Positions 3,001-34,289 of a stretch of DNA of 64,000 nucleotides are shown here, one piece after another. Below the pieces are notes generated by a model that did not search any database, had not been told where the DNA came from, and saw nothing but the letters and a program-made list of their open reading frames with translations. The stretch is from a virus, in the IMG/VR virus record IMGVR_UViG_3300032282_001564, positions 32,001-96,000 of that record, one strand, 5' to 3'. Every line of letters starts with the position of its first letter. Position 1 is the stretch's first letter. A program made the translations under genes and the position numbers.

Positions 3001-6000
3001 GTTTGGATTGAAAATTCTTCACCATTGGGCTGGGGAACATTTACTGTTAAAAGACCTTGGCTGGCAAATACAGTACAGTCAAGAACCAGTGCCACTCCTG
3101 GAGTACGTGGAAACTATGGCGCGGCAACAGCATCTAGTTTAGATAACAATTGGTTATATGTTGGCGCACCTGGTACAAGCACAGTAGAGATTTTATCTAA
3201 TGTAAATTATGTTTATAGTTCTGCTAACGTAATTAATAGTGCAGACAATAACTTTGGTTATAGCATTGCAACATCAAAGGACTTTGTTGTTATTAGTTCT
3301 CCTGATGCAGGAAATGTACGTGTATACACACACGGATCTACAACACCATTACAGGTAATTACATCAGCTAATGCCAATGGTAAGTTTGGATCAAGCGTCG
3401 ACATCAGCAATGACGGACATTGGTTATATGTGTCTGAACCTGCTACTGGTGTAGTACACGCTTATACCACAGTAGCAAACACAGCCGCTAATTTAAACTA
3501 TGTTAAAGTATCAACTAAAACTGTAAACAGTAGCATTATTAAAACCAATGCCAGCGGTACACGATTATTTGTCGGTGCACCAAACGACTTTAACGGATAC
3601 AACCAAGGCGGTAATGTTTATGTATACACTAGAACTGCTAACACAGTTTCATCTGCACAGACAATTTCTGGTGTATTTAAAAACGATAACGCAAGATTTG
3701 GTACAAGTTTAGACATTGATAAAACTGGTAATAACTTGTTTGTTGGTGTGCCTAACTCAACTATTTCTACTTACGCAAACGGATTGGTAGAACGTTGGAT
3801 ATACAACGGATCACAGTTTGTGCATCAAGCAAATATCGCACACCCTGGCAATACACCGGGCACATTTGGTAGTAGTATCAGTGTAACAGCAGATGCAAAA
3901 TTATTAGCGGTTGGTAGTGCTGGTAGCCAAGGCGAAGAAAGTACTACATTTGATAATGATGCAACACAAATTGACAAGCACACAACTAAATTCATTGATT
4001 ATATTATGAACAGTGGTGTGGTCTATATGTTTGATTCATTAATAGACTACAAAGTAGCCAATGATCCTGGTACATATATCTACGGACAAGAACTATCTGC
4101 ACAATTAACTAGCGGAGACCAATTTGGTACTAGTATAGTTGCAACTAGAGATGTTGTTGTAGTTGGCGCACCGGGCGTAACTGTTGATGAATATGTTAGT
4201 GCTGGTGAATCACACGTTTATGTAAATGCAAACAAAACGCCAATGTGGGATCGTACCAGAGAACAACAACCTGTTGTAGACATTGACAGTATTAACAGAA
4301 CTTTTGTATTTGATAAAACAAACAACAACATTCTAGCCGCACTAGATTATTTTGATCCAAACAAGGGCAAAATATTAAATTCTGTTGCTAGTGATGTTGA
4401 TTATCAACGTATTGGCGATCCAGCATTATACAACGCTGGTAGCACATCATCGGTTATTGATCTGCATTGGGGGCCAGACCAAGTTGGAAAAATTTGGTGG
4501 GACCTTGACCACATCCGATTTATTGATTATGAACAGGATGATTTATACTATAGATTGAACCACTGGGGTAAACGATTCCCGGGCAGTCAAGTACTAGTTT
4601 ACGAATGGGTTGAAAGTGATGTACCGCCAAGCAAGTACGAAGGCGATGGTACGCCATTGTACATGGACGATAGCAAATATTCTACTTATGGATTTGTTGA
4701 CCCAGCTGGCGCAATCAAATTGAAATACTATTTCTGGGTATCAGAAAAAACAACAATTAATGTCGATGCTGGAAAATCTAACAGCGCCTACAGCATTGCG
4801 GCTTCAATTGAAAATCCACAAAGTCAGGGAGTTGCATACGCAACAGTATTGCGTGATGATTGTTTAGCATTATACAATGTTAGCCAAGTATTGTCAGGTA
4901 AAAATGCAGTTCTACACATTACTAGCCGTAGCACAAACGCTGGGTTGATACACAGTGAATATGCACTGGTACAAGAAGGTAACCCTGCAAGTTTAATCCC
5001 GGGTTCTATTAAAGATAAGTTTATTGACAGTTTAGCCGGTCAGGATAAAATTGGTAATCCGGTTCCTGATCCTACACTAACACCAGCACAGGCCTATGGT
5101 ATAAACATTCGACCAAGACAAAGTATGTTTGTAAGCCATGACTTGGCATTGTCTAACTATCTTGAACTAGTTAACAATATTATGGCTACATACCAAGTAG
5201 CACGCCGAAAAGTTTTAACATTATTAAACAGCGAAGAATCTGCACCAAATATTAACACAGGCTTATACAGCCAGATTGTTAATAACGATACAGAATTGGG
5301 CTATATTAATACAACCAGCCTCGCTACAGGTTACAGCATCCTGGTAGTCAGTGATGAAACTCAAATGGGTAAATGGGCAATTTATACTTGGGACGGCGAT
5401 GCATGGGCAATATCTCGAGTACAGGATTATAAAACCAATTTATACTGGAACTATGCTGACTGGTACACATCAGACTATGATGTTACACGAGCCCCGGACT
5501 TAACTGTAGCAACAGCATTGGAGTTAGGAAAATATACTCTAGTGGCTGAAACTTATGTTAAAGTAACAGATGCTGGTAATGGCGATTTTGAAATTTATTA
5601 TATAGATGCCGATCTTAATAAGACTCTAGTAGGCATCCAAAACGGTACAGTTCAAATATCCACTGGCAGTATTCCTAAAATGGAATTACGTCAACTTTTA
5701 ATTGCAATGCAAGAAGAAATTTTTGTTGATGATTTAGCATTAGACTATAATAAGATTTTCTTTGCGTTAATTAAATTTGCTCTGACTGAGCAAAAAAATC
5801 CTGACTGGGTATTTAAAACCAGCTTCTTGACTGCTACACAATACCTACGTAAGTTAGAGCAATTCCCTAGCTATATTGCTGACAACCAGGATTTCTACAA
5901 AGAATATATTAACGAAGTTAAACCATATCGCACAGTACTACGTGAGTTTGTTGTAGATTATTTACGTAATGATAGCTATAGCGGTGACGTTACTGACTTT

Positions 6001-9770: not shown

Positions 9771-11843
9771 ATGGCATATGATTTAGTTAAAACAGACGGT
9801 TCCCACTTAACAACCTTAGGTGATGGTTATATTGATACCAGCACTGGTATTAATCTAATCGGGCGTAATACCCCGAGCTATGGCGACGCACAAAACGAAA
9901 ACTTTATTCGTTTATTAGAAAATTTTTCTGGCAAGCTAGATCCAAGCCAGCGTGGCGCTATCAATGCGTTAACTGGTACACTATGGTACGACACTAACAC
10001 AAATACTCTAAGAGCATACGATGGTATAAACTGGAACACAACAAGTGGCCCAATCGTTGCAAACACCGCACCACTATTAACAGGCGGTACTGAATCATTA
10101 AAGTTTGGCGCACTATGGTATGATGTTCCTAACCAACAATTAAACACATGGACTGGTGTCGAGTGGAAATTAGTTGGACCACAAGCTAAAGCTAGCCAAG
10201 GCAAAAGCGGAAACTATGTTGAAACAATATTAGATCCAGCTGGTGTTTACCATATTGTAGTTAACCAATACATTAACAATAATTTAGTCAGCATTACTAG
10301 TTTTGATGGTGAGTTTACTCCATTGACAGCTATTGCTGGATTTACAACTATTCGTCCAGGTGTTAACTTAACAACATTAAATGTTAGTACTGTATTAAAT
10401 GGCACAGCAACTAACAGTATTAAATTTAATAACTTATTTGCCAATGCATTTGCTAGAGTTGACCAACCAACTACATTTACATCAGATGTTTCTGTCAACG
10501 GAAACTTAATTTTATCAAGTGCTAACATTTATTATAATTCTGCAAGCAAAAGTCTAACAGCATACAATTATGCACTAAATGGCAATGTTGACATTTATGT
10601 TAATAAGGCCGCAGTTAAAACTAGTGTACTACATATCAATGGCGCTACTGGTTTAGCAGAAATTAACGGCGACCCAGTTACTGATAATGGTATAGCAACA
10701 AAACACTATGTAGATCAAATTAATGACGAACTGTTTGCTAACCTAGATGTTACAACAGGTCGTTTACAATATGCCTTAGATAACTTTAATACTGATTATC
10801 TATCTAATATTAACGCAGTTATTAGTTCAACTAATGCCAACCTAAATGCTGTACAAGCAGGCATTAACTCAAACGTAACTACATTAACAACTTTAACAAA
10901 TAATAGATTAAACTATGCTAACGTCTACTTAAATTTCTTACAACAAGAAGTTGAAGTAGTAGCCTACAGTGATTCGTTAAAGGCCCCAATTGAAAGCCCA
11001 ACCTTTACTGGCAATGCAATAGCACCAAACGTAGCCGCAATGAATAATTATATTACTTCATTGGCAGGTAGTCAGTATCAAATTAGTTTAGTTAGCCCAG
11101 TAGCATCTGTAGCAAATGGCGCATTCTTAACGCAACAAATTGTATCTACTCCTTGGTCATCAAATACTGTATACAACTTAGGTTCGATTGTTTATCATGG
11201 CGGTAATAGTTATGTAGTCAACGGTAACGTGTTTGCTAATACATGGGCAAACGTAGTAACTGGTGCGGCACAATATGTATACAGCGGTTCTATATTAACA
11301 ACTGGAAACTATCGTGTAATCGCAAACGTAAATGGATCAACTACAGTCCCTGTCACTGTTATTACAAATAATTTAAACTTTACATACCCAAGCGTAGTTG
11401 AAATTAACGGCGTTGTAATTAATAATCAAATTACAGGAATAAGTTTAATTTCTCCAGGACTAAGTTACCCTGGTATTGGTGATAACAGCGGACGTATTGC
11501 AACTACAGCCTACGTTGATGCAACTGCTAACTTAGTATATGGTGACTATGATCACCGTATTAGACAAGAAATAACAAACCGTATTAATTATGTTGACACA
11601 TCAGTTGCACCAAAGGCAAATATTGCCAGCCCAACACTTACAGGAACGCCGGCCGCCCCAACAGCAACCCCATTAACTTGGTCAACAGCCGGGCACAATC
11701 CCTTAAGTGGTGACACAACTACAACTATAGCAACTACAGCATACGTAGCAACGTCAATATCAAATCAAAAATTTAACTATACAGTTTCTACACAACCTCC
11801 TAGTGGTGGTTCTGATGGGGATTTCTGGTTCCAGGTGGATTAA
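9771..11843 (+). CDS. Tail fibre protein 1
   Basis: Shared N-terminal module (NENFIRLLENF, G-x-LWYD); fibre motifs ATKHYVD, APIESPTFTG, IATTAYV; C-terminal PSGGSDGDFWFQV. Confidence 0.75.
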   Translation: MAYDLVKTDGSHLTTLGDGYIDTSTGINLIGRNTPSYGDAQNENFIRLLENFSGKLDPSQRGAINALTGTLWYDTNTNTLRAYDGINWNTTSGPIVANTAPLLTGGTESLKFGALWYDVPNQQLNTWTGVEWKLVGPQAKASQGKSGNYVETILDPAGVYHIVVNQYINNNLVSITSFDGEFTPLTAIAGFTTIRPGVNLTTLNVSTVLNGTATNSIKFNNLFANAFARVDQPTTFTSDVSVNGNLILSSANIYYNSASKSLTAYNYALNGNVDIYVNKAAVKTSVLHINGATGLAEINGDPVTDNGIATKHYVDQINDELFANLDVTTGRLQYALDNFNTDYLSNINAVISSTNANLNAVQAGINSNVTTLTTLTNNRLNYANVYLNFLQQEVEVVAYSDSLKAPIESPTFTGNAIAPNVAAMNNYITSLAGSQYQISLVSPVASVANGAFLTQQIVSTPWSSNTVYNLGSIVYHGGNSYVVNGNVFANTWANVVTGAAQYVYSGSILTTGNYRVIANVNGSTTVPVTVITNNLNFTYPSVVEINGVVINNQITGISLISPGLSYPGIGDNSGRIATTAYVDATANLVYGDYDHRIRQEITNRINYVDTSVAPKANIASPTLTGTPAAPTATPLTWSTAGHNPLSGDTTTTIATTAYVATSISNQKFNYTVSTQPPSGGSDGDFWFQVD

Positions 11844-11846
11844 AAC

Positions 11847-12908
11847 ATGTCATATGGTCGCGGCGTCTTTGTTAAGCGAAACGGAATATGGACTGAAACA
11901 ACTCCACGAATCTTTGATTCAAATATAGCACCCGTTGATTCTGTAACAGTAACAATTACTGTAAATGGTGCTGGTGGTGGGTCGGGTGCCAGTGATGCCG
12001 CAGGTGCAGGATACACAGGAATCCCAGGTCGCCGTGTTACCGGTACTATTACACTACATCAAAATGATTTTTTACAAATAGCCTGTGGATCTGCAGGTGC
12101 CGACGGCAGTGGTGGCGGTAATGCCGCTGGCGGTACTAATCCATTGGGATTCAATGGTGGTCAGGGCGGATATCCTGGCAATGAAGGATCGTCCGGTGGT
12201 GGTGGCGGCGGCGGAGCTGCCAGTGTTGTTCTATTAAATAGAGAAGTTATTATTGTTGCTGGTGGTGGTGGTGGAGGCGGTGGCTCTGGTGCTAATTCCC
12301 CGGGACGTGCGGCCGCTAATGCAAGTCAAAATACAGGATCTAATTTAGGAACACCTGGGCAAGATAAAACCTACGGTGGTGAGCATCCAGCACCACAGGG
12401 TGGTGGTGGCGGTTGTAAGATTATCTGTACTAAGCTGTATCAGTTGGGACTACTACCAGAAGAAATATATGCGGCAGACCAAGCCTACGGAGAACAACTA
12501 CAAGAACGTATGCCTATGTTATACAATGGATATCGTGCATGGGCAGAAGTTGTTGTTGATTGGATGAGCGGAAGCGGTCCTAAGATGATGCCTTGGATGT
12601 CGGATGAAGAATTTAGTCAGGCCGCTACTAAGTGGTCAGTTAAGTGGGCAGAAGATATTGCTACACCATGGGCTGAAGAAATGGCTTATCAAATGGGATC
12701 AAGAGACCAAGGTAACTTAATTGGTAAAGCAATTATGGCTGTTGGTGTACCTATTAGTATCGTTGTTGGTGTGTGGAATAAAGTATTTGGCGAAAGCAAA
12801 CGCCCAACAGGATTTGTTAAAGGTATAGCATTAATTGGTGTATTTACATTGTTACGCAGTATTGTAGCAGTAGGAAATACTCTAAAGAAAATTAAAGGAA
12901 GCAAGTAA
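11847..12908 (+). CDS. Glycine-rich adhesin-like protein, fragment A, with C-terminal 'CKIICT' module
   Basis: N-half of an ALK/LTK-like Gly-rich domain (IIVAGGGGG), then EHPAPQGGGGG|CKIICT at 12414, ending in a hydrophobic tail. Confidence 0.7.
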   Translation: MSYGRGVFVKRNGIWTETTPRIFDSNIAPVDSVTVTITVNGAGGGSGASDAAGAGYTGIPGRRVTGTITLHQNDFLQIACGSAGADGSGGGNAAGGTNPLGFNGGQGGYPGNEGSSGGGGGGGAASVVLLNREVIIVAGGGGGGGGSGANSPGRAAANASQNTGSNLGTPGQDKTYGGEHPAPQGGGGGCKIICTKLYQLGLLPEEIYAADQAYGEQLQERMPMLYNGYRAWAEVVVDWMSGSGPKMMPWMSDEEFSQAATKWSVKWAEDIATPWAEEMAYQMGSRDQGNLIGKAIMAVGVPISIVVGVWNKVFGESKRPTGFVKGIALIGVFTLLRSIVAVGNTLKKIKGSK

Positions 12909-14581
12909 TGGCAGACGGAGGCGGCGGAGGCGGCGGAGGCGGAGGCCACTGGGGCGGTATTGGTGGCGCAACCTACGGCGGAGATGATGGTGCGTATAGT
13001 GGAGCTTTTGGTGGCTCCTTGGCTCCTGCTGGCTTTACTACAAGCGTAGGACAAACAGGTCAAGGGTCGGTAGTAATTACATATACAGCTACACAACAAT
13101 TATTTGTTGGCGGCACAGTTACCCATAATGGTACAACGTGGACTCATACTTTTGCTCCGGGTACTACAACTTATTTTGTATCAAATTTCCCGGGACCTTA
13201 TAAACAAATTAGACGTGGATGGGCTAAACTCAATGGTACATGGAAAGATTTTTATCCTAGTACAGGTGCTGTGTCCTTTGCTTCATATGGACAGATAATA
13301 GCCAAACTACCACACCTTGATCCTTCAATGGAAGTTAGTCCCGATATTGCTGGTTTATTGTCGCAAGGTATTACTGTTACTCCGACAACTACTGGAGTAG
13401 CACCAGCGGATACTGATGCAACTAGGGAATGGTTTAACTATCAGAGTGGATTAATAGCCGCATCTGTAAAACAATATTATCTAAGTCAGGTTACTCCGTA
13501 TCCTGTAACTGCAAGTTATTTTGTAGCTCATATGCTACCTAAGCCAGATGGAAAAGTAGTAGTACAGGACTACACAGGTTCAGCAGTTAATTTTTCTAAT
13601 GTATCTAACATAGTAGGAACTGCATACACTTATATTTTTGATCCAACACATAACGCACAAAATTTAAAATACGAAGATGATTTTATAAACGCTGTAAACT
13701 CAGCAATTATGTTGAGCAACATTAATAAAGAAATAGCATGGGATAGTCCTAGCCAAAGTTTTACTTTTAAAGTACCAAGAGGCATTCATAGTGTCAGCGT
13801 TGACGTTGTCGGCGCCGGAGGCGGTGGTGGTGGGTCTGACGAAGTTGGTGTAGGATCAGCCGGAGGCGGTGGTGGGTCGGGTGGATATCAAATAAATCAA
13901 ATATTAAATGTTGTGCCAGGAGAGTACTTAACTATTACTCCGGGTAAACCTGGCTTTGGCGCACCTTTTGTAGGACGGACTACTCGAGCACCAGCCGGTG
14001 GCGCCGGTGGCGATTCTATCATTGCTGGAGAGTTTGGCAGTATAACTGCAACTGGCGGTAAAGGTGGTGCAGGTGGTGCTAGTGACGAAATACCACAACC
14101 AAGTGGCGGTGGAGGTGGCGGCTGTAAAATTATCTGTACTAAACTACATGAGTTTGGTTACTTGTCAGATCACATATACGAAGCTGACGAACGCTTTGGC
14201 GAATACTTACGAGCCAACGATCCATACGCATACTATGGATATGTTAAATGGGCGTCAGTTGTTGTTGACTGGATGGAAAAAGATGGCCCACAATGTATGT
14301 TCTGGATACGTGATAAAGAAAAGCGTAACCAAGCACAACGTACAATGGCAATTAACTGGGCAAGACGTATTGCTACACCATGGGCAGAACATATGGCCTA
14401 CATAATGGGCGTAGGAGAAAAAGACAATCGTGCAGGTAAGCTAATCATGAAAACAGGTATGTGGGTAAGTCGCATGATTGGTAAGTATACAAAAACAACA
14501 GAACCAACTAAGAGTGTAGCACTAGGTTACGTAATGTGGGCTACATTTGGTGTATTCTGGTTATTAGCGGGAGTTAAATAA
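12908..14581 (+). CDS. Glycine-rich adhesin-like protein, fragment B, with second 'CKIICT' module
   Basis: Starts with the C-half of the first Gly-rich domain, carries the N-half of a second (FKVPRGIHSVSVDVVGAGGGG), then EIPQPSGGGGGG|CKIICT at 14123. TAATG-coupled to fragment A. Confidence 0.7.
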   Translation: MADGGGGGGGGGGHWGGIGGATYGGDDGAYSGAFGGSLAPAGFTTSVGQTGQGSVVITYTATQQLFVGGTVTHNGTTWTHTFAPGTTTYFVSNFPGPYKQIRRGWAKLNGTWKDFYPSTGAVSFASYGQIIAKLPHLDPSMEVSPDIAGLLSQGITVTPTTTGVAPADTDATREWFNYQSGLIAASVKQYYLSQVTPYPVTASYFVAHMLPKPDGKVVVQDYTGSAVNFSNVSNIVGTAYTYIFDPTHNAQNLKYEDDFINAVNSAIMLSNINKEIAWDSPSQSFTFKVPRGIHSVSVDVVGAGGGGGGSDEVGVGSAGGGGGSGGYQINQILNVVPGEYLTITPGKPGFGAPFVGRTTRAPAGGAGGDSIIAGEFGSITATGGKGGAGGASDEIPQPSGGGGGGCKIICTKLHEFGYLSDHIYEADERFGEYLRANDPYAYYGYVKWASVVVDWMEKDGPQCMFWIRDKEKRNQAQRTMAINWARRIATPWAEHMAYIMGVGEKDNRAGKLIMKTGMWVSRMIGKYTKTTEPTKSVALGYVMWATFGVFWLLAGVK

Positions 14582-14582
14582 A

Positions 14583-14996
14583 ATGGGAATTAGTTTAGAA
14601 GAGTTTTTAAAAGATAGAGAAGCTTGTGCTCATTGCGATGAAACAGGCAACCAAGAAACTTGCATTACTACATTGCTAAGTCGTGAAGATAGTTGCATTT
14701 TTTATAACGCATTAACTAAAAATGGTGACCCACACGATGATACTGATGTAGCGTATTTGCAAAACTTCCGAGCAGTAATGCCGGGGCACAAAGTACTTGA
14801 TTATTATGTTCGTGCTAGTAAGATAGTACAGGCAATCAATGATGAGCCCGGTGATCACACAGATCTATGGATGGATATTACTCGACAATATGTACATCCA
14901 ATTATTGCAGAAGTACGTTCTGGAAAAAATGAAGAAGCGTATGCCGCTATTTTGGCAATGCTTGATACATTAGAAACAGGAAAACAAGGAGAATAA
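14583..14996 (+). CDS. Stand-alone CFI-box-CTERM-like helical protein
   Basis: CITT...LQNFR...LDYYVRASKIVQAI...YVHPII...GKNEEAY resembles the CFI-box-CTERM consensus as I recall it. Confidence 0.55.
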   Translation: MGISLEEFLKDREACAHCDETGNQETCITTLLSREDSCIFYNALTKNGDPHDDTDVAYLQNFRAVMPGHKVLDYYVRASKIVQAINDEPGDHTDLWMDITRQYVHPIIAEVRSGKNEEAYAAILAMLDTLETGKQGE

Positions 14997-14997
14997 T

Positions 14998-15306
14998 ATG
15001 CCAGCAGGTGGAGCAGGTGGATTACCAAACGGAAATCCTGGAGCAGACGGCGAACAAGGTAGTGTTGAGAGTAGTTCCAATACTGGTGGCGCTGGCGGCG
15101 GCACACCTTTTGGCGTAGGCGGATCTAGTAGTATTTCGTATCCTAACGGTACCAGAGGTACTGGGTATGGGGCAGGCGGCGGAGGTGCAAGTGCTCCTAA
15201 CGGTGTAGACCCTCTTAACTGGACGGGCGGCGATGGATCATTTGGGTTAATTACAGTATATTGGGGTCCTAAGTATGATCCTAACTATACTAATAAGCCC
15301 TATTAG
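14998..15306 (+). CDS. Glycine-rich adhesin-like protein, fragment C
   Basis: GGAG SD; supplies the typical domain ending GYGAGGGG...GGDGSFGLITVYW that fragment B lacks. Confidence 0.7.
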   Translation: MPAGGAGGLPNGNPGADGEQGSVESSSNTGGAGGGTPFGVGGSSSISYPNGTRGTGYGAGGGGASAPNGVDPLNWTGGDGSFGLITVYWGPKYDPNYTNKPY

Positions 15307-15342
15307 GAATTATGATAAGTATAGTATAAAGAGAACAGTAAT

Positions 15343-17289
15343 ATGGCATATACAATAACAAAAACAGACGGTACAACCCTAACAACTATCAATGATGGGT
15401 TCTTAGACACGAGTACCAGCCTAAGTTTACCCGGTCCAAACTATGTTGGATACGGTCAAAAACTCAACGAAAATCTAGTTTATTTGTTAGAAAATTTTGC
15501 CGGGAATAGTTCTCCAACTGGTTTAAACGTTGAAGGACAACTGTGGTATGACAAAATTAATACTACATTAAACGTCTTTACAAAATATGGATATCTTCCT
15601 GTTGCTGGTGTAGTAGTATCTGGCAGTCGTCCAGTAGTACAAAAAGTTGGCGACGTTTGGTTTAATACAGCAACTAATCAATATTACTTGTATGATGGTA
15701 CTGACTATAGATTAGTCGGGCCAGTGTACACTAAAACACAAGGCGTAAGTGGCGCGATTCCTGTAGATATTATAGAAAGCCTAGGCACACCACATAACGC
15801 ACTACAATTACAATTTGGCAATACTGTTATTGCTGTCATTAGCGAAAAACCTACATACGCAGTAGGCCCTGGTGGCGGCCCAACAGGGTTTACATATATT
15901 AATCCGGGTATTACATTTAGGAATGACATCCACGCTACCATAAACAGTAACCTGGTAGGAGACGTAACAGGTAACGTAGTAGGCTATATCACTGGTGATG
16001 TAGTTGGTAACCTTAGAGGTAATGTAGTAGCATCTACATTAGTTGGTAGCTTAACTGGTAACGTAGTAGCTACAACATTAAGAGGTAACTTAACAGGCAA
16101 TACTGTTACAACCAATAGCGTTACAACAAATTTTAGCACAGGCAATGCGGTAATTACAGGTGGTTACATAACCGGCATTTCCAATATTGGTGTAACTTCG
16201 GCAACAGTACAAAACCTTAGAGCCGCTAACGCTGTAATTACAGGTGGTTACATCAATAACATTGCTAATATCTCTGTTACATCTGCCGTAGTTAATAACA
16301 TTACTATGACCACTGGTACAATTGGCGCATTGTCAATCGGAAGTGCTCAAGTTGCATCTGGTGATTTATACAATATTGGTAATATTAACGTTACTACGAT
16401 TGAAGCTGATAACATTAGCACAGGCAACGCTGTAATTACTGGTGGCTATATCAATAACATAGTTAACCTTGGTGCAAGTACCGGTAGTTTCCAAAACTTA
16501 ACAGCATCAATCATTAACGCCCAAGGCGGTAACTTTAACGGCATCAGTAACTTTAATGCCTTCACTGCTCAAACAAATAACTTTAGTACAGGCAATGCAT
16601 GGATTACAGGTGGTAACCTTGTAAGCGTACCACTGTATAACAATACTATCACAGCCGCTAACCTGGTCAATGCTACAACCGCAACTCCTGCAACTAATAA
16701 TAGAAGTACAGCAGTAGCAACAACAGCATTTGTTCATAATGTTATGCCAACTGGTGCTATTATTATGTGGGCTGGCTCAATTAATAGCATTCCGTCGGGT
16801 TGGGCACTATGCGATGGTAGTAATGGAACTCCAGACTTGCGTGATCGCTTTATTGTTGGTGCCGGTACAGCAAACATTGGTACTACTGGTGGATCTGCTA
16901 CCACAACATTAACGCAGGCAATGTTACCTCCACACATACACTCAGTTAGTTTAACCGGTAATACCAATGCTGGTGGTACACACTCACACATTGCGTCAGT
17001 TACTGAAACAGCTCACACGCACACATACGATAGAGCTACATTAAATTCTGCCGCGTTTAACTATAACAATGCATATCCACAGAGTGGCACAGCATACACC
17101 TATAGTTTAACCAACACAAGTACTACAACTGGTACAAGATCTACGGGTCTAAGCGTTGGTGTTTCACAAGCCGCTGACCATATACACTCAATTACAATAA
17201 CAGGTAATACTGGATCTATTGGTTCTAGTACATCATTTGATACACGCCCACCATATTATACATTGTGCTTCTTACAAAAGGCGTATTAA
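15343..17289 (+). CDS. Tail fibre protein 2 with tail-collar domain and His-rich tip
   Basis: Shared N-terminal module; GNVVG and NFSTGNAVITGGYI repeats; collar motif MPTGAIIMW...GWALCDGSNGTPDLRDRFIVGAG; HxH motifs; terminal PPYY. Confidence 0.85.
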   Translation: MAYTITKTDGTTLTTINDGFLDTSTSLSLPGPNYVGYGQKLNENLVYLLENFAGNSSPTGLNVEGQLWYDKINTTLNVFTKYGYLPVAGVVVSGSRPVVQKVGDVWFNTATNQYYLYDGTDYRLVGPVYTKTQGVSGAIPVDIIESLGTPHNALQLQFGNTVIAVISEKPTYAVGPGGGPTGFTYINPGITFRNDIHATINSNLVGDVTGNVVGYITGDVVGNLRGNVVASTLVGSLTGNVVATTLRGNLTGNTVTTNSVTTNFSTGNAVITGGYITGISNIGVTSATVQNLRAANAVITGGYINNIANISVTSAVVNNITMTTGTIGALSIGSAQVASGDLYNIGNINVTTIEADNISTGNAVITGGYINNIVNLGASTGSFQNLTASIINAQGGNFNGISNFNAFTAQTNNFSTGNAWITGGNLVSVPLYNNTITAANLVNATTATPATNNRSTAVATTAFVHNVMPTGAIIMWAGSINSIPSGWALCDGSNGTPDLRDRFIVGAGTANIGTTGGSATTTLTQAMLPPHIHSVSLTGNTNAGGTHSHIASVTETAHTHTYDRATLNSAAFNYNNAYPQSGTAYTYSLTNTSTTTGTRSTGLSVGVSQAADHIHSITITGNTGSIGSSTSFDTRPPYYTLCFLQKAY

Positions 17290-17879
17290 TGATAATTGAG
17301 CTTGACAATTATGTAAATGCTGAGGACCTTGCTTATATACGTGAGCAAATTGAACCACGCATTACCGGATATGGCGAGCCAAACGAATACCATAGGGCTG
17401 GCACTACTTTAACAATAGCGAAAATTTCAGAATTAACAGATTTGAATTCTCGTTTGAGCAACATATTCCGCAATGTTAAAGTACGCATCAGAAGAGATTA
17501 CCGCCCAAGTTATAGTGGCATGGGTGATAGTGGCTACGAATTCCATAGATATCAGCCCGGGGATATTTGCAAACCCCACGGCGACAGCGAAATTGTAGCT
17601 GGGGAACCACATTTACGTTACGCCAGTGTGGTACTGCACTTAAATACAGTAGAAACTGGCGGGGAATTAATATTCCCAACCCAAGATATTCGGGTAAAAA
17701 CAAAAGCAGGAAAAATAGTAGTTTTTCCGCCCTACGGCATGTTTAATCATTACACAACCCCAAGCGAAGAAGTACGAGATGTAATAGTAACTTGGTTTAC
17801 ATATGATGGATTAAGTGTTGTTAAAAACGGCATAAATATAACGAGCAATCAAGGATTATTAAATGGCATACACAATTGA
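17289..17879 (+). CDS. 2OG-Fe(II) oxygenase (prolyl-hydroxylase-like)
   Basis: RYQPG...PHGD...LHLN...GGEL.FP...VFP...NHY...R motifs; ATG overlaps the fibre stop codon (TAATG). Confidence 0.85.
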   Translation: MIIELDNYVNAEDLAYIREQIEPRITGYGEPNEYHRAGTTLTIAKISELTDLNSRLSNIFRNVKVRIRRDYRPSYSGMGDSGYEFHRYQPGDICKPHGDSEIVAGEPHLRYASVVLHLNTVETGGELIFPTQDIRVKTKAGKIVVFPPYGMFNHYTTPSEEVRDVIVTWFTYDGLSVVKNGINITSNQGLLNGIHN

Positions 17880-20788: not shown

Positions 20789-21103
20789 ATGAGCGAACTC
20801 GAAAAACTTACTGCCGAAATACGACAGGCCACTGATTATCAAATTAATAAACGCATCCTACGAGAAAAAATCCAAACAGATTTGCATTTACCCTATAATG
20901 GCGGATTGTTTAAAATTACACCCGAGCTATTAGCCTTTATGCAAGGTTGGCCAATTGATGATATGTATCTTGAAGATGCATATGGTAATCCTATTCAAGT
21001 TGACCGACAGGTATTTTTGATTCAAGCACAACAGCATTATCAACAAGTAATGAACAGATGGCATCAACAACATGGCGAACTTAAGAAAATCCGCAAAGTC
21101 TAG
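20789..21103 (+). CDS. Hypothetical protein
   Basis: 104-aa ORF after the promoter, overlapping the next gene. Confidence 0.7.
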   Translation: MSELEKLTAEIRQATDYQINKRILREKIQTDLHLPYNGGLFKITPELLAFMQGWPIDDMYLEDAYGNPIQVDRQVFLIQAQQHYQQVMNRWHQQHGELKKIRKV

Positions 21104-21887
21104 GGGCGCCGTAGTATTTGCTCTTAATAACGGGCAAACAGATTATGTAGCCATGGCGGATCAAACAAGCCGTTTGATCCAACACAACATGGGCATGCCA
21201 GTTACACTTGTTACAGATTTAACCAGCGAACCGGAGTTTGCGTATGATCGTATTGTTCGTATAGACATTGCTGGACACAATTTTAAATTAGATAATGCCA
21301 CAGTTCGTTGGCGTAATTTTGGACGCTACATGGCATACGAAGCCAGCACATATGATGAGACATTGTTGCTAGACACTGACTATCTAGTACTTGATGATAG
21401 TTTGTTAAAATTATTTGCCACGGACTTTGACTATAGACTAATGCATCACAACGTAACTGATTCTGGTCCGCTGTATGAAGAAATGGGAGAAACTAGTTTA
21501 CCATTTATCTGGGCCACAGTAGTAGCATTTAGAAAAACTGAACGCTCAAGACTATTCTTTAATCTTGTTGGACGTATACAACGTAATTACAACTACTATA
21601 GGACTTTGTTTAATGTTCGCGAAAGTAATTTTAGAAACGATTATGCATTTGCAATGGCTAATATAATTATAAGTGGTTACGACATTAACGAAGACCAAGG
21701 CATTCCTTGGCCAATGTACACATTAGAAAAACCAGTGGTGTCTATTAAACCTACTGATAATTTCTTACATGTCAAGTACGCCGATTTGGCAACAGTAGTT
21801 CCTTACCAGAATATACACGTAATGGATAAAGAATATTTGTTAAGTGACAATTTTAAAAATTTAGTAGGAGAACTCTGTGAATCATAA
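21072..21887 (+). CDS. GT-A fold glycosyltransferase-like protein
   Basis: STYDETLLLDTDY (DxD), WATVVAF, FRNDYAF. Confidence 0.65.
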   Translation: MANLRKSAKSRGAVVFALNNGQTDYVAMADQTSRLIQHNMGMPVTLVTDLTSEPEFAYDRIVRIDIAGHNFKLDNATVRWRNFGRYMAYEASTYDETLLLDTDYLVLDDSLLKLFATDFDYRLMHHNVTDSGPLYEEMGETSLPFIWATVVAFRKTERSRLFFNLVGRIQRNYNYYRTLFNVRESNFRNDYAFAMANIIISGYDINEDQGIPWPMYTLEKPVVSIKPTDNFLHVKYADLATVVPYQNIHVMDKEYLLSDNFKNLVGELCES

Positions 21888-22695
21888 AGAACAAGCTGGC
21901 TTTGTTACTTTTGCACAGAACACAGACCAAGTTGATTATTTAGAACTGGCCGCAGTACAAGCACAAAACATTAAACTAACACAAAAGTTAAATCGTACAG
22001 CAGTAATAGTAGATAGTGCAACCAAGGAAAAAGTAAATGACGATCATCGTGGCGTTTTTGATTATATCATTGATCTTCCCCATGATTATAATGATCCTAC
22101 TAATGCTAGAAAGTTTGCTAATGAGTGGCAAGTCTTTTGGCTTACGCCTTTTAAAGAAACTGTTAAATTAGAAAGTGATTTACTGTTTACTCGTAGCATT
22201 GATCATTGGTGGACAGCATTTAGGTTACGCAACGTTTGTTTAAGCGTAGGGGCAAGAGATTATCGCGGTAATAGAAATTATAAAAATTTATACCGTAGAG
22301 AATTTCCAGAAAATGAACTACCTGATGTATACAACGGATTAATGTATTTTAGATATAGCCAAGAAGCTGTACAATTTTTTAATGTTGCCCGTGCTGTTTT
22401 TAATAATTGGGCACACATAAGAGACAACCTACTGATTAACTGTAGAGATGAAACTCCGAGCACAGATGTACTGTATGCGGTTACTGCACTTATAGTTGGA
22501 CCAGAAAATTGTACAGCACACAGTTTAGATTTTATAAACTTTACACACATGAAATCGGCATTCAATGGATGGAGTGATAACCGTATGTGGACCGACACAG
22601 TAGTCGGCGAAACAGATGGTAATATGATACGAATTAATAATTTAAATCAATACCATCCGGTACATTACTACGATAAAGATTATGTTAAAAGATGA
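21877..22695 (+). CDS. GT-A fold glycosyltransferase-like protein, paralogue of the previous gene
   Basis: TPFKETVKLESDL (ExD), YNGLMYF, STDVLYA, FTHMK. Confidence 0.65.
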   Translation: MNHKEQAGFVTFAQNTDQVDYLELAAVQAQNIKLTQKLNRTAVIVDSATKEKVNDDHRGVFDYIIDLPHDYNDPTNARKFANEWQVFWLTPFKETVKLESDLLFTRSIDHWWTAFRLRNVCLSVGARDYRGNRNYKNLYRREFPENELPDVYNGLMYFRYSQEAVQFFNVARAVFNNWAHIRDNLLINCRDETPSTDVLYAVTALIVGPENCTAHSLDFINFTHMKSAFNGWSDNRMWTDTVVGETDGNMIRINNLNQYHPVHYYDKDYVKR

Positions 22696-23023
22696 AGATG
22701 TATTTGCGTTACTAACTCCTGCACCGCAAGTAGAAATAGAGTATAGGATCTACTACAACGATGCAGGCGATATTACGCATTGCTCAATGATAGAACACGC
22801 CGATGGAAATTACATTGTTGTGGATAAAGACACATACAATAATTATTTCCAATACCACATAGTCAACGGTAAGTTAAAAAAGATAGAATCGGACGCTAGA
22901 TATATCGTAAAATTGCGTAAGTCAACAAAAGGATATCCTGTAGTAGCAGGAAACGCCAGCTTAATATTAGAGCCGGGCGAAACACATGAAAATATAGAAT
23001 ACTATGAACGAACAGATAATTGA
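22682..23023 (+). CDS. Hypothetical protein
   Basis: 113-aa ORF overlapping both neighbours. Confidence 0.65.
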   Translation: MLKDEDVFALLTPAPQVEIEYRIYYNDAGDITHCSMIEHADGNYIVVDKDTYNNYFQYHIVNGKLKKIESDARYIVKLRKSTKGYPVVAGNASLILEPGETHENIEYYERTDN

Positions 23024-23900
23024 TATTGCTGATATAGATTGCATTTACCTTAGTTATGATGAACCACGTAAAGAAGAATTTTGGATTATGATTCAAAATA
23101 TGGTTCCTTGGGCTGAACGTGTTGATGGTATTAAAGGGTCAGACGCCGCACATAAAGCGGCCGCAATGACTAGTACCACTGATTGGTTTGTACTAATTGA
23201 TGGAGACAATATACCAGACCCTGACTTCTTTAATAAACAATTAATACTAACAGACGAACACCAAGGTGGTGCATTTCGTTGGCGAGCTCGTAATGTTGTT
23301 AACGGATTAATGTATGGCAACGGTGGTATGAGTGTGTGGTCAAAAGAATTTGTAATGAATATGCGTACACACGAAGCAAGTGATGGTACTGCGGCCAACG
23401 ATGTAGAGTTTTGTTTTTATCCTAACTACTACAGTATGAATGATTGTTATAGTACAACACATCCTAATGCTACTCCATTCCAGGCCTGGCGTGCCGGATT
23501 CCGCGAAGGTGTTAAGATGTCGTTAGATCGCGGAGCAAAGCCTAGTCTTGAAGAATTTGAACAGCGTGTACATAGTCGCAATTATGATCATTTGTGCATT
23601 TGGCAAAGCGTTGGCGCCGACGCAGAAAATGGCTTTTGGTCTATTTACGGAGCACGACTTGGTACTTACATGACCATGATTGAAGGATGGAATCACAAAG
23701 AAGTACAAGACTTTGATGTGCTGGCTAAACTATGGGAATCGTTTAGCCAAGACGGCGCTGACCAATGTTGTAGTGTAGGCGACACACTACGTAGAAAATT
23801 AGGCATGCCTATAGTAGATATGGATCCTGCTGAAAGTGAGTTCTTTAAACATCACTACAGATCGCAACATAAAAATTTAGGAATAATGATTCGTGAGTAA
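23004..23900 (+). CDS. Glycosyltransferase-like protein (GT-A, DxD)
   Basis: LSYDEP, HKAAA, WFVLIDGDN, NGLMYGNGG, AWRAGFREGVK. Confidence 0.6.
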   Translation: MNEQIIDIADIDCIYLSYDEPRKEEFWIMIQNMVPWAERVDGIKGSDAAHKAAAMTSTTDWFVLIDGDNIPDPDFFNKQLILTDEHQGGAFRWRARNVVNGLMYGNGGMSVWSKEFVMNMRTHEASDGTAANDVEFCFYPNYYSMNDCYSTTHPNATPFQAWRAGFREGVKMSLDRGAKPSLEEFEQRVHSRNYDHLCIWQSVGADAENGFWSIYGARLGTYMTMIEGWNHKEVQDFDVLAKLWESFSQDGADQCCSVGDTLRRKLGMPIVDMDPAESEFFKHHYRSQHKNLGIMIRE

Positions 23901-25278
23901 AAGCGATTTTATGTCTGCCGCAGAGCAGATGCAGGCAAAGCTAGGCCCAGCACTATGTTTGGCTAAATGGAAACAAGTAAGTTTACATTTACCTACAGGG
24001 TTAACTAACAGTTGTTATCATCCTCCGCTACACACAATCGATGCTGAAGAGATTAAAACAAAACCCGGAGCACTACACAACACAGCACATAAAAAGGCTC
24101 AGCGTGTTATTATGCTTAAGAATGAGCGTCCGCAAGAGTGTAGTTATTGTTGGACACAGGAAGACTTAGGTAATTTAAGCGATCGTCATTATAGGTCAGG
24201 TGAGCCTTGGGCCGCAGAAGATTATGACGTTATTAAAAACAGCAAAGGAACTGAAGATGATGTTATTCCGTCGTATGTCGAGGTTAACTTTAATCATGCG
24301 TGTAATTTGCGATGTAGTTATTGTAGCCCTCAGTTTAGCAGTAGCTGGCAAACAGAAGTGGACAAGTATGGCGGCTACCCAACAAGTGTCATTCATAATG
24401 ATCCTAGTCATTTTACTGGCAATCGTCGGCCTATACCACATTCCCACGATAATCCTTATGTTGATGCCTTCTGGGAATGGTGGCCTACACTATATCCTAA
24501 ACTAAAACATTTCCGCATGACCGGTGGTGAGCCATTGATGGACAAGAATACATACAAAGTATTTGACTATGTATTGGCCTTACCTAACCCAGAATTGCAT
24601 TTGGATGTGACCAGCAACTTCAGTGTGGAAGATAACTTGATGAATAAGTATCTTGACTATGTAAAACAATTATGTTCTACACAAATTGAACATTTTATGC
24701 AGTATGTTAGTGTAGACACCGGCAACGTCAAACATGCTGAATATATCAGGCACGGACTTGATATGAATCGACTACACGAGAATGTCAACAGATTCTTAAC
24801 AGAAATTCCATACCGTAATAGTCTAACATTTATTATTACCATGAATAATCTAAGTGTACTTGGATTACAACGACAATTAAATTGGATTCTTGAATTGCGT
24901 AAAAAGTACAGCACTACATATCAACGTGTTTGGTTTGACACTCCGTTGCTACGTACACCGACTTGGCAAAGTCTACAAATACTGCCACCTGTGTATGCCG
25001 GTGTGCTAGAACGTGTGGCCGATTGGATGGAATTACATTTAGAAACCGCAGACAAGCCATTTCAAGGTTTTAAAGACTATGAAGTACAGCGTATGCGTAG
25101 GGATATAGATTGGATGAAAGAAGGTTGTAATCTAGATCCAAAATATGTTAAACTGCAACGTGCAGATTTTTATCGTTTCTTTAATGAACACGATAAACGT
25201 CGTGGCACAGACTTTTTAGCAACATTTCCTGAAATGCGAGAATTTTGGAAAGAATGTGAGTACCATGCCAAGAATTAA
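23893..25278 (+). CDS. Radical SAM protein 1 with N-terminal twitch-like domain
   Basis: CLAKW...SCYH...CSYCW; CNLRCSYC; TGGEP; C-terminal DKRRGTDF...FPE. Confidence 0.9.
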   Translation: MSKSDFMSAAEQMQAKLGPALCLAKWKQVSLHLPTGLTNSCYHPPLHTIDAEEIKTKPGALHNTAHKKAQRVIMLKNERPQECSYCWTQEDLGNLSDRHYRSGEPWAAEDYDVIKNSKGTEDDVIPSYVEVNFNHACNLRCSYCSPQFSSSWQTEVDKYGGYPTSVIHNDPSHFTGNRRPIPHSHDNPYVDAFWEWWPTLYPKLKHFRMTGGEPLMDKNTYKVFDYVLALPNPELHLDVTSNFSVEDNLMNKYLDYVKQLCSTQIEHFMQYVSVDTGNVKHAEYIRHGLDMNRLHENVNRFLTEIPYRNSLTFIITMNNLSVLGLQRQLNWILELRKKYSTTYQRVWFDTPLLRTPTWQSLQILPPVYAGVLERVADWMELHLETADKPFQGFKDYEVQRMRRDIDWMKEGCNLDPKYVKLQRADFYRFFNEHDKRRGTDFLATFPEMREFWKECEYHAKN

Positions 25279-26614
25279 TAACGAGTCAGACTTAGAATAC
25301 AAACGCCGTGTAATTGACATTAAGTCAGAAAGTTTCTGCGGTGCAAAATGGTATAACGCTACTATATGGCTAGGTTCAGGTATGACTACAAGTTGTCATC
25401 ACCCTTTACCGCATAAGGTAGAAGTAGCAGATGTCATAGCAAATCCTAAAGCATTACACAATACAACACAAAAGAAGATAGAACGCAGTCAGATGCAAAA
25501 GGGCGAACGTCCTACAGGTTGTGAATACTGCTGGAAAATCGAAGACATTGGTCGCGACAATATTAGCGACCGTGTTTATAAAACTGTTATATACCAAGAC
25601 AAGGACTTAGACTATGCATACAATCTTGACCCAACCACTGATGTGGATTTACAAACTCTTGAAATCGCCTTTGACCGCACCTGCCAGTTTGCTTGCTCTT
25701 ACTGCAACCCTGCCTTTTCTTCCACCTGGGTCAAAGATATCGATCGCAATGGCCCTTATACTGGCCTTGTCAGTGATGGCCGTAACCATTTCACTCATTC
25801 GCATGGAAGTAGCCAACTATACCGCTTTGGTGAAGAAAATCCATATGTCACAGCTTTCCACAAGTGGTGGGAATCAGATCTACATAAGACGCTTCAAGAA
25901 CTCCGTATTACAGGTGGAGAGCCACTTATGTCAGGCGAAACGTGGAAACTTATCGATTGGTTTAAGACGAACAAGGGCAAAAGCAAGACACGTCTAGCAA
26001 TTAATAGTAACCTAGGTACACAAGTAGATATTGATCGTTTGCTTGCAAGTATTGATGGTGTTGAAATAGATTTATATACCAGCAACGAAGCAATGAATCT
26101 ACAGGCCGAATATATCCGCGATGGGCTTGTATTTGATGATTGGGCAAACAATGTAGAACGACTACTAGACTCAGGTAAGTTCCGTGGGCTTCACGTTATG
26201 TGTACAATTAATGCCTTGTGTCTCGATAGCCTTGATAGTTTTCTTGAAATGGTTTATAACTGGAAACTAGAATACGGCAAAGACAGTATTAATTTTTCTC
26301 TAAATATATTACGCTTTCCTAGTTTTCAAAGTCCGCTAGTATTACCTGACTCGTCAAGAACGTACTATAGAGAAAAACTGCAAGAGTGGCTGGATCATAA
26401 CTACAGCAGTGAATTTATACACCGCTTTGAACTTGATCAGTTAAAACGATTAATAGATTATCTTGACGTAGTTAAAACTCCACATGCCGGCGCCGCAGAG
26501 CAAGAAATATTGCGTAGGGATTTTAAATTGTTTTATCAACAATACGATCAACGCCGCGGCAAAAACTTTACAGAAACATTTCCTGCATTAGCAGAATGGT
26601 ATAATACACTATGA
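25265..26614 (+). CDS. Radical SAM protein 2 with N-terminal twitch-like domain
   Basis: CGAKW...SCHH...CEYCW; CQFACSYC; TGGEP; DQRRGKNF...FP. Confidence 0.9.
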   Translation: MPRINNESDLEYKRRVIDIKSESFCGAKWYNATIWLGSGMTTSCHHPLPHKVEVADVIANPKALHNTTQKKIERSQMQKGERPTGCEYCWKIEDIGRDNISDRVYKTVIYQDKDLDYAYNLDPTTDVDLQTLEIAFDRTCQFACSYCNPAFSSTWVKDIDRNGPYTGLVSDGRNHFTHSHGSSQLYRFGEENPYVTAFHKWWESDLHKTLQELRITGGEPLMSGETWKLIDWFKTNKGKSKTRLAINSNLGTQVDIDRLLASIDGVEIDLYTSNEAMNLQAEYIRDGLVFDDWANNVERLLDSGKFRGLHVMCTINALCLDSLDSFLEMVYNWKLEYGKDSINFSLNILRFPSFQSPLVLPDSSRTYYREKLQEWLDHNYSSEFIHRFELDQLKRLIDYLDVVKTPHAGAAEQEILRRDFKLFYQQYDQRRGKNFTETFPALAEWYNTL

Positions 26615-27927
26615 GTAAAGACTTTTATAACAAAGGTTACGATTATATGGCTCGCAAGCCATATTTCATTGAACGTGAAGAACTAACACCACGCCAATGG
26701 CAATTACTAACTGAAAGCGATCGCTTCTGTATGCTTCCGTGGATGCACATGCATGCCTTTCCGGATGGTCGTGCTTATCCTTGTTGTTTAGCTGACTACT
26801 GGCATCCAGTCGGTGATTTACGCAAAGACACAATGGCGGAAGTATGGAACCAAGACGCATATAAAACAATGCGTACAAATATGTTAACTGAGCGTGAGTG
26901 CAAAGAGTGTACAAAATGTTACGAACAAGAAGCAAATGGTTTCTTTAGTATGCGTAACGATAGCAATCGTAATTATGGACATCATATAGCCGAAGTAGAA
27001 AACACCAAGCCAGATGGCACTAACCCAGAATTTAAAATTCGTTATTGGGACGTTCGCTTTAGTAACTTATGTAATTTTAGCTGTCGTAGTTGCGGTCCTA
27101 TTTTTAGCTCAAATTGGTATAACGATCATGTAAAGTTATATAATCGTAAACCTGATGTACTTGGTCGTGATATGGCTAGAGTTGAATACACTACCGGTGA
27201 CGAAGATAATATGATAGCTCAAATGATGCCACACGTACCACATCTAGAGCAAGTATACTTTGCCGGTGGCGAACCATTGATCATGAAAGAACATTACTTT
27301 CTGTTAGAAAAATTAGAAGAACTAGATAAAACAGAAGTGCGAATTCAATACAACACAAACTTTAGCGAACTACGCTACAAGGACAAGCACGTATTTGATT
27401 ACTGGCGAAAGTTTAAGAATGTCAGTGTGGGTGCAAGTCTTGATGCTAGTGGAGCCAGGGCAGAGCTAATGCGTAAAGGAACAGACTGGGCACAAGCAGT
27501 TGATAACCGTCGACGTATGCAAACAGAAGTGCCACACGTAGACTTTTATATCAGTGCCACAGTTAGTGCTATGAACATTCTACACGTACTAGACTTTCAT
27601 CAAGAGTGGACTGAATTAGGATTAATTAGAGCACAAGACTTTAATGTAAATATTTGCCAAAGTCCCGAATGGTATCGTATTGATATCTTCCCTGAATGGT
27701 TTAAGAACGATGTTATTATTCCTGCATATGAACGACATATTGCTTGGTTGGAGCCACAGGATAATCTTAAACGTGCCACTAACGGATTTAAGTCAGCCTT
27801 GAACTTTTTACGTTCCGGAGATCAAAGTCATCACTGGCCACGCTTTGTAGAAGAAATACGTAAGTTAGATGAAATACGTGGCGAAGATTTTTGGGCAACT
27901 TTCCCAGAGCTTGCTAGTTTAAAATGA
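26611..27927 (+). CDS. Radical SAM protein 3 with N-terminal twitch-like domain
   Basis: CMLPW...PCC...CTKC; CNFSCRSC; AGGEP; DEIRGEDF...FPE. Confidence 0.9.
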   Translation: MSKDFYNKGYDYMARKPYFIEREELTPRQWQLLTESDRFCMLPWMHMHAFPDGRAYPCCLADYWHPVGDLRKDTMAEVWNQDAYKTMRTNMLTERECKECTKCYEQEANGFFSMRNDSNRNYGHHIAEVENTKPDGTNPEFKIRYWDVRFSNLCNFSCRSCGPIFSSNWYNDHVKLYNRKPDVLGRDMARVEYTTGDEDNMIAQMMPHVPHLEQVYFAGGEPLIMKEHYFLLEKLEELDKTEVRIQYNTNFSELRYKDKHVFDYWRKFKNVSVGASLDASGARAELMRKGTDWAQAVDNRRRMQTEVPHVDFYISATVSAMNILHVLDFHQEWTELGLIRAQDFNVNICQSPEWYRIDIFPEWFKNDVIIPAYERHIAWLEPQDNLKRATNGFKSALNFLRSGDQSHHWPRFVEEIRKLDEIRGEDFWATFPELASLK

Positions 27928-34213: not shown

Positions 34214-34289
34214 CAGAATTAAGTTAGAAATTCGCTATCGCAAAAAACTTAAAGAGTTGCGTAAACGTGATCCTTTTATTTACAAATGA
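34188..34289 (+). CDS. 33-aa basic peptide, not in the ORF track
   Basis: MNWLKNLYNRIKLEIRYRKKLKELRKRDPFIYK; fills the gap and is ATGA-coupled to the next gene. Confidence 0.6.
   Translation: MNWLKNLYNRIKLEIRYRKKLKELRKRDPFIYK

Follow-up and report, generated by a model that had tools for sequence, protein, structure and literature searches.

The 64,000-nucleotide (nt) window analysed here is part of a 113-kb IMG/VR record (IMGVR_UViG_3300032282_001564) whose completeness is put at 31% by CheckV, so that the source is probably a very large, jumbo-type, uncultured phage. Its tail-fibre cluster runs, in order, from a fibre of 3006 amino acids (aa) through a 690-aa fibre (ending GDFWFQVD), the open reading frames (ORFs) A, B, X and C that are the subject of this account, a 648-aa collar-type fibre and a 2OG-Fe(II) oxygenase to a 608-aa fibre. 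Successive members of the series A, B, X and C are joined by TAATG overlaps or 1-nt gaps, with a Shine-Dalgarno-like site at every restart. Between them they encode two glycine-rich domains of the polyglycine-II (PGII) class, each divided by a linker, a C-terminal module opening with CKIICT, and a stop (Table 1). A preliminary description, made from the letters of the sequence, had already recognised these ORFs and the two divided domains; both its coordinates and the divisions are borne out by an ORF check, by Pfam and PHROG profiles, and by uninterrupted orthologues.

Table 1. Genes and features of the split adhesin locus, in window coordinates (AF2, AlphaFold2; pLDDT, predicted local distance difference test)
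Feature	Position	Strand	Size, matches and remarks
ORF A	11847-12908	+	353 aa
ORF A residues 1-178, first three quarters of Gly-rich (PGII) domain 1	11847-12380	+	Gly_rich_2 10-167 of 226; phrog_2155, E 1.7e-11; 51% identity to A-like ORF of L023
Linker EHPAPQGGGGG, half-domain 1 to module 1	12381-12413	+	strain X4: one Gly codon more, in frame
Module 1 (type 1), last 164 aa of ORF A with stop codon, begins CKIICT	12414-12908	+	57-66% identity to 16 homologues; AF2 pLDDT 82, six helices
ORF B	12908-14581	+	557 aa
ORF B residues 1-60, last quarter of Gly-rich domain 1 (MA-D-G10-HWGG to VVITY)	12908-13087	+	matches residues 82-146 of the 148-aa ORF of L006 and 297-416 of L028
ORF B residues 61-265, spacer	13088-13702	+	no Pfam/PHROG family bar weak phrog_25859; ORF B 42% identical overall to B-like ORF of L023
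ORF B residues 266-393, first half of Gly-rich domain 2	13703-14086	+	Gly_rich_2 42.8 bits, profile 3-114; phrog_863 392-519
Linker EIPQPSGGGGGG ahead of module 2	14087-14122	+	strain X4: GGC codon inserted after 14104
Module 2 (type 2), last 152 aa of ORF B with stop codon	14123-14581	+	92% aa identity to L032 module; type-2 clade support 97/95
ORF X	14583-14996	+	137 aa; cognate partner gene of type-2 modules
ORF C	14998-15306	+	102 aa; second half of Gly-rich domain 2; phrog_863 519-603; 59-65% identity to L023, P0268, P0269
Putative mobile block: Gly-codon run, module 2, ORF X and restart codon of next fragment	14107-15020	+	83% nt identity over 914 nt to L032 4982-5891

The Pfam family Gly_rich_2 (PF21722, 226 positions) aligns residues 28-188 of ORF A with profile positions 10-167, and residues 282-405 of ORF B with positions 3-114. 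The match to ORF B scores 42.8 bits against a gathering cut-off of 24.3; ORF A taken alone reaches 16.6 bits, which is under the cut-off, though it is recognised by phrog_2155 (E 1.7e-11). Neither chain carries a whole Gly_rich_2 domain, the remainders being encoded on the ORFs that follow. Across the B|C break the profile phrog_863 is contiguous, with residues 266-404 of B corresponding to positions 392-519 and residues 4-89 of C to positions 519-603.

Uninterrupted orthologues, which the preliminary description had proposed to seek in related phages, do exist (L-numbers denote IMG/VR loci, L001 being Synechococcus phage SynMITS9220M01, MT408532). A 148-aa ORF of L004, L006 and L015 spans the A|B break, matching residues 100-189 of A and then residues 3-59 of B (52-58% identity for L006), and a 611-aa protein of L027 and L028 passes likewise from A 8-189 to B 3-112. 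At the break itself L028 reads NKSGD-G10-WAGG, where the window has KTYGG, the linker, the module, a stop, and then MA followed by D-G10-HWGG. Since L028 reads straight through at the point where the window holds linker, module and stop, the A|B break is a precise in-frame insertion without loss of domain residues.

Both splits are retained in L023 and L024 at 42-59% protein identity, and the entire arrangement is kept in a strain, X4, from a run of a different study that is 94-96% identical to the window. X4 differs in its two linkers by whole-codon Gly insertions only (at 12395-12398 and 14104), so that the frame into the module is kept. Taken together, the coupled ORFs with their Shine-Dalgarno sites, the retention of the splits in L023 and L024, and the whole-codon differences in X4 sustain the earlier argument that this is not a gene in decay. 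As to RNA splicing, a scan of positions 11000-16000 with Rfam gave no intron, the only match being a chance Thr_leader (E 0.35), and among the sequencing runs none is listed that holds RNA.

The two modules are 45% identical to one another (E 4e-42) and belong to a widespread family. A word-based search returned 366 relatives, and a profile search of 1.84 billion cluster representatives gave 1424 module clusters at E ≤ 1e-3 and 578 at E ≤ 1e-10. In all 143 representatives inspected (proteins of 150-1859 aa) the module is the last domain, and the parts that precede it include whole or partial Gly_rich_2, DUF4815, PA14, Asn-Cys repeats and unassigned parts. The join is usually poly-Gly and sometimes poly-Pro (in SynMITS9220M01, about 35 Pro and then 8 Arg), with a transmembrane-like hydrophobic stretch in six representatives and a Hint domain in six. 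The sole isolate carrying the module at E ≤ 1e-3 is SynMITS9220M01, and no near-identical phage record was found in INPHARED.

The module begins with the motif K-I-I-C-T-K-L, and an alignment of 18 sequences has 37 invariant columns, including five Trp. Its AF2 model is all-helical, with six helices (pLDDT 82, predicted template modelling score 0.74), and there is no Hint match, in agreement with the earlier remark that the module is not a recognisable Hint domain. The invariant Cys is the second of CKIICT (that is, the Cys of KIIC), placed by the model in helix 1 of the all-alpha bundle. The last helix has a Kyte-Doolittle mean over 19 residues of 1.7-2.6, past the usual threshold for a membrane span, in eight of eight sequences computed, and is followed by basic residues; module 1 has two hydrophobic stretches (102-120 and 135-153) and module 2 one, at its extreme C-terminus. 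Neither Pfam nor PHROGs, NCBIfam or PADLOC yielded a match to the module, and the PDB none either, whether searched with Foldseek (E ≤ 0.001) or with a sequence profile (E ≤ 10). The best hit of a wide fold search, the NEL domain of SspH1, was set aside, its Z score of 5.7 lying within noise for helical models. The module occurs in the ESM Atlas only in unnamed viral clusters and in BFVD only in uncharacterised phage proteins, and a literature search found no paper on the KIICT module, on the CFI-box domain discussed below, on split PGII adhesins, or on Hint domains on tail fibres. The module is obligately C-terminal; together with a partner protein it probably associates with a membrane or promotes assembly, and it is probably not part of the mature receptor-binding surface. 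As to its function, we would guess first at a role in assembly or anchoring, for a domain that associates with membranes and can sometimes be removed.

The module is also found outside Gly-rich proteins. In contigs of T4-like marine phages (L003, L005, L008-L014, L017-L022, L026, L029-L031, L040-L048) it ends a protein of about 300 aa whose central part is an Asn-Cys repeat (...CNCNCS|KIICT) and whose gene is neighboured by a conserved gene of 484 aa and by several that resemble oxygenase genes. The module is separated by an ORF of 220 aa, in L040-L048, from the small gene, here called the follower, that is described below. In L007 (4496-6683) a PAAR-like protein of 93 aa immediately precedes a 569-aa module-bearing protein and then a follower, which suggests that the module is also borne by spike-tip-associated proteins.

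Type-1 modules go with the follower, a helical protein of 66-134 aa whose short and mid-length forms are homologous (hhalign probability 95.9%, E 5.5e-9). Of 37 module ORFs in L001-L031 and the window, 31 have its gene immediately behind them. The type-2 modules form a separate clade (support 97/95) and are followed instead by a member of the ORF X family, as in L001, L032-L037 and L039. The window contains both conditions, in that module 1, of type 1, has no follower, while module 2, of type 2, is succeeded by ORF X. The 30 homologues of ORF X have invariant cysteines at positions 15, 18, 27 and 38, and its AF2 model is helical (pLDDT 73). It belongs to no family in Pfam, PHROGs, NCBIfam or PADLOC and has no solved relative, the best fold match (Z 6.7) lying within noise. 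A kinship of ORF X, follower and module, suspected by eye, was rejected at hhalign probabilities of 0.1-1.1%.

Two further gene arrangements touch on these partners. L023 has an extra 144-aa ORF with no family match (4256-4690) between the follower and the B-like fragment. In SynMITS9220M01, genes 028-030 (L001, 4669-8103) specify half a Gly-rich domain, the stretch of about 35 Pro and 8 Arg and a divergent module beginning GS-IICKNL, then a homologue of ORF X (32% identity), and then a gene starting MAKAGGGGGG that completes the Gly-rich domain. This isolated cyanophage thus offers a culturable instance of the same arrangement.

Comparison with L032 bears on how the insertions might have arisen. 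This locus is syntenic with the window, the fibres that flank it being those of the window at 66-70% nt identity. A type-2 module and ORF X stand at its A|B site; the counterpart in the window lies at the B|C site. Identity within the block rises in the run of Gly codons before TGT-AAA-ATT-ATC-TGT and drops at the start codon of the downstream fragment, the flanks being either 66-70% identical or unalignable. The A|B site is variously occupied, by a type-1 module alone (the window and P0031), by a type-1 module with follower and 144-aa ORF (L023), by a type-2 module with ORF X (L032), or by a Hint domain and a type-2 module (P0149); L004 and L006 have a third split point in this domain, ahead of the others. 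Because the block is 83% identical at the other split site while its flanks are only 66-70% identical, we infer that cassettes move between glycine-codon runs. Both ends of the block sit within (GGN)n, and the simplest mechanism would therefore be recombination of the Gly-codon flanks of the cassette with Gly-codon runs of PGII domains. Searches of the module, ORF X and the follower against Pfam, PHROGs, NCBIfam and PADLOC detected no nuclease family.

Whether the divided halves could come together again was addressed for the B|C pair with a complex model of B(255-405) and C, built from our own six-row alignments, so that its calibration is rough. The model joins the two chains into one domain with a score of 0.79, the best of three controls scoring 0.01; 58 of 80 solved complexes attain that mark, as do two of 110 mismatched pairs. 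Separate runs agree in at least 77% of contacts, the partner has a pLDDT of at least 75, and there are about 450 contacts, with the first strand of the B half (296-303) paired with the last strand of C (83-88). The preliminary description had suggested modelling the halves as a single PGII sandwich, and for this pair one joint domain is indeed predicted, in support but not in proof of binding. Given the conservation of fragments and frames, the model also fits the second of the alternatives offered there, a non-covalent split assembly.

The explanation that we favour, at a probability of about 0.6, is that a two-gene cassette has recombined into glycine-codon runs in two PGII adhesin domains, the halves of which reassemble non-covalently. 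The cassette would comprise a Gly/Pro linker, an all-helical KIICT domain of about 160 aa with a hydrophobic, basic tail and a stop, usually a small cognate gene, and a ribosome-binding site and ATG. Since the module brings its own stop and restart, each insertion would make two genes from one: the upstream half-domain would acquire a C-terminal appendage, the module, attached by a flexible linker, and the downstream half would be translated apart, by coupling. The two halves would then fold non-covalently into one PGII sandwich, as the complex model supports, and the function of the adhesin would be kept. The module, with its partner protein (here ORF X), may serve in membrane association or assembly, and in some relatives a Hint domain would remove it. 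In the window, where nothing points to cleavage, the module may stay attached; this is the least certain step. Several points weigh against this explanation. The success of the complex model may reflect only the likeness of the halves to whole PGII domains known to it. No recombinase or endonuclease was found in the cassette, so that the term mobile refers to comparative evidence only. Module 1 has no partner gene at all, and no canonical follower was found in the 113-kb contig, which represents about 31% of the genome. Finally, the function of the module is deduced from composition and context alone, and a membrane-seeking tail on a fibre protein has no explanation.

Other explanations account for part of these observations. 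The stops might have been produced by frameshifts, or by chimeric assembly at glycine repeats, in a decaying or misassembled gene, and Gly-codon repeats do yield spurious contig joints, with sides of only 20-23 letters. This is scarcely credible, however, for an architecture met with again in the likely source run (on a contig of 29 kb), in contigs from another study, in L023, L024 and L032 and in many protein clusters, and for a module whose invariant columns testify to clear purifying selection. (Joints that skip parts of the locus, for example from 12214 to 13806, were considered as cassette-free alleles and dismissed as repeat artefacts, having 20-23-letter sides and 85% likeness and lying in Gly-codon repeats.) It is less far-fetched, but still unlikely, that there is no reassembly and that each ORF specifies an independent protein, the half domains being merely shorter Gly-rich repeats on module-anchored proteins. 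PGII domains are repetitive, partial Gly_rich_2 matches are common on module proteins, and in L004 and L006 module proteins exist with only the first third of the domain; yet the missing part always lies directly downstream, in frame order, and is conserved, the profile coordinates are contiguous across the break, and the model sets the first strand of the B half against the last strand of C. Somewhat more weight, although we would not expect it to prove correct, attaches to the idea that the module is a membrane-active effector and the small downstream gene its cognate immunity protein or chaperone, the fibre delivering or releasing the module at the host envelope and the splitting being a tolerated by-product of cassette exchange. 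The locus has the organisation of a toxin cassette, with a C-terminal module, a cognate gene directly downstream and exchange by recombination at a conserved linker; the module is obligately C-terminal and has a hydrophobic tail, each subtype has its own downstream partner, and some relatives have a Hint domain directly upstream (a weak PT-HINT match in P0149). On the other hand the modules are not polymorphic, all being homologous at 30-90% identity, no toxin, immunity or defence family is matched, the partners are soluble helical proteins without a solved relative, and both module 1 here and the B-like module of L023 lack a partner gene.

The preliminary description itself had proposed that the module cuts itself off through an N-S acyl shift at Gly|Cys, after which the acyl end would be joined either to a small molecule or to the N-terminus of the following fragment, so that three genes would yield one chain. 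Both junctions of the window do read G5-6|C-K-I-I-C, type-2 modules generally retain that Cys, and the modelled halves are so intimately interleaved that a free N-terminus could be brought near the acyl end. The E-x-P-x-P-x-G5/6-C junction on which the proposal drew is real in the window, but elsewhere is only a loose linker pattern: L023, the closest relative with both splits, reads GGGGGG|KIICT, with neither Cys nor ExPxP. The first Cys (Cys190 and Cys406 here) is in fact absent from both L023 splits, from P0127 and P0169, which share the A|B site, and from most type-1 modules. The module is all-alpha, and no Hint family is matched at E ≤ 1 on A or B; there is no Hint, intein or PT-HINT match in the module or in the 113-kb contig (about 31% of the genome), where our own Hint hidden Markov model found nothing at E ≤ 10. 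Moreover B (MADGGGG) and C (MPAGGAGG) begin with domain residues, and have neither an intein C-terminal part (IntC) nor a Cys, Ser or Thr nucleophile at position 2. Self-cleavage at Gly|Cys with ligation is accordingly not supported for the window, and we regard it as very improbable.

The link to Hint chemistry that the same description drew, for which the window holds no counterpart, is nevertheless met with in relatives. P0149 (at A|B) and P0237 (at B|C) carry a complete mini-Hint at these very junctions, and P0142, P0151 and P0162 are similarly arranged, with a complete Hint (Cys1, TxxH, HN) exactly between half-domain and module. In P0149, an orthologue of ORF A, Gly_rich_2 positions 2-167 are followed by ...KTSGGGC and a 142-aa Hint that opens with CFDP... 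and closes with ...VHN, after which come K-KIICT and the rest of a type-2 module; in P0237 the Hint ends IVHN|CGGGG-SIICT. The five Hints align over Cys1, a T/S-x-x-H block and the terminal HN, features that are absent from the module alignment and present only in these separate domains. P0142 passes TIGR01443 (intein C-terminal region) with 16.3 bits against a cut-off of 15.6, and the PT-HINT match of P0149 is weak (19.3 bits, under the cut-off of 27.7). The position of the Hint between half-domain and module implies thioester chemistry at this junction in the relatives, and some phages are thus predicted to detach the module from the half-domain autocatalytically. Even there the Cys precedes the Hint, not KIICT, and HN is followed by Lys in five of six Hint-bearing relatives, from which cleavage rather than splicing is predicted. 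Removal of the module, plausible in these relatives, would make biological sense for the Hint-less copies of the window, which give no sign that it occurs. A bolder reading, in our view very improbable, sees in the KIICT module and its partner a device that processes virion proteins in Hedgehog-like fashion. An acyl intermediate at the junction, formed by Hint or by another route in Hint-less phages, would be resolved either by a membrane lipid that the helical module recruits or by the N-terminus of the next fragment once docked there, the latter amounting to protein ligation proper between products of separate genes. If so, the mature adhesin would be stitched or lipid-tagged and the module discarded.

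Among known systems, the nearest documented case is the nrdA gene of Aeromonas phage Aeh1, which is split by mobE and whose fragments reassemble non-covalently via insertion-derived tails (Crona et al. 2010, Nucleic Acids Res, PMC3045599). There too an insert divides a phage gene into two translated genes, and here likewise there are uninterrupted orthologues and a precise insert. The Aeh1 insert, however, is a homing endonuclease gene that leaves short tails; no such gene is detectable here, where a folded 160-aa domain is fused to the upstream fragment and accompanied by a cognate small gene, and where the same domain family has been struck at no fewer than three positions in many phages.

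The glycine-rich domains themselves are of the same sandwich class as the gp38-type PGII adhesins (T2/S16-like; PF21722) and lie likewise in a tail-fibre cluster, but the known adhesins are single chains, whereas here a domain is drawn from two genes. The C-terminal appendage invites other comparisons. Hint domains are combined with SRR in Hedgehog and with toxins in polymorphic toxins (PT-HINT, PF07591), and occur also as bacterial intein-like (BIL) domains. The relatives P0142, P0149, P0151, P0162 and P0237 resemble such units in having a mini-Hint between cargo and a C-terminal helical domain; the proteins of the window differ in having no Hint, the KIICT module is all-alpha and has no known adduct or toxin activity, and Lys follows HN in most of the relatives. 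Tail fibres may also end in intramolecular chaperone domains of the Peptidase_S74 type, which are removed after assembly, and Tfa-type fibre chaperones are encoded downstream. A C-terminal helical domain with a small downstream gene at the end of a fibre gene is reminiscent of both; yet there is no S74 or Tfa match here and no solved fold relative, and the hydrophobic tail is atypical. CFI-box-CTERM (NF041770) is similar in that a Gly-rich linker joins surface-type proteins to a C-terminal domain led by Cys and hydrophobic at its end, but its profile has 69 positions against 161 for KIICT, and KIICT is viral and has a partner gene. Membership of CFI-box-CTERM, which has a 40-bit cut-off, was rejected: the profile recognised nothing on A, B or X at E ≤ 1, nor in the contig at E ≤ 10.

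If the cassette explanation is correct, there is a second, very widespread route to phage genes in pieces, by way of a domain-plus-stop cassette in glycine-codon runs rather than an endonuclease gene or intein. PGII receptor-binding domains would then tolerate a two-chain make-up, which would be useful for host-range engineering and for annotation, such fragments being at present annotated as separate hypothetical proteins. More than 1400 protein clusters from aquatic phages contain the end-domain itself, which is borne by fibres, by DUF4815 proteins of baseplate type and by proteins with Asn-Cys repeats. Together with subtype-specific partners and an occasional Hint it may constitute a coherent system for processing or anchoring virion proteins that is absent from the libraries searched (Pfam, PHROGs, NCBIfam, PADLOC).

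Some minor features of the locus and its surroundings may be recorded. The poly-Gly run that opens ORF B (12908-12945) uses GGA and GGC codons, while the linkers ahead of the modules use mostly GGT and GGC, and the GC content at third codon positions is 0.38 for residues 1-60 of ORF B against 0.20-0.29 in the neighbouring parts; this bias may be a trace of a different origin of the run. The 2OG-Fe(II) oxygenase gene (17265-17879; phrog_61, E 3e-19) overlaps the fibre genes on both sides, and the same gene is found in the same place in L023. Right after the fibres comes a long series of overlapping genes (21072-35860), within which lies a tryptophan-halogenase-like gene (34286-35860; phrog_2928, E 1.6e-66). 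A free-standing HNH endonuclease gene (41563-42819; phrog_1314, E 9e-110) is distant from the split locus, and no link to the cassette was seen.

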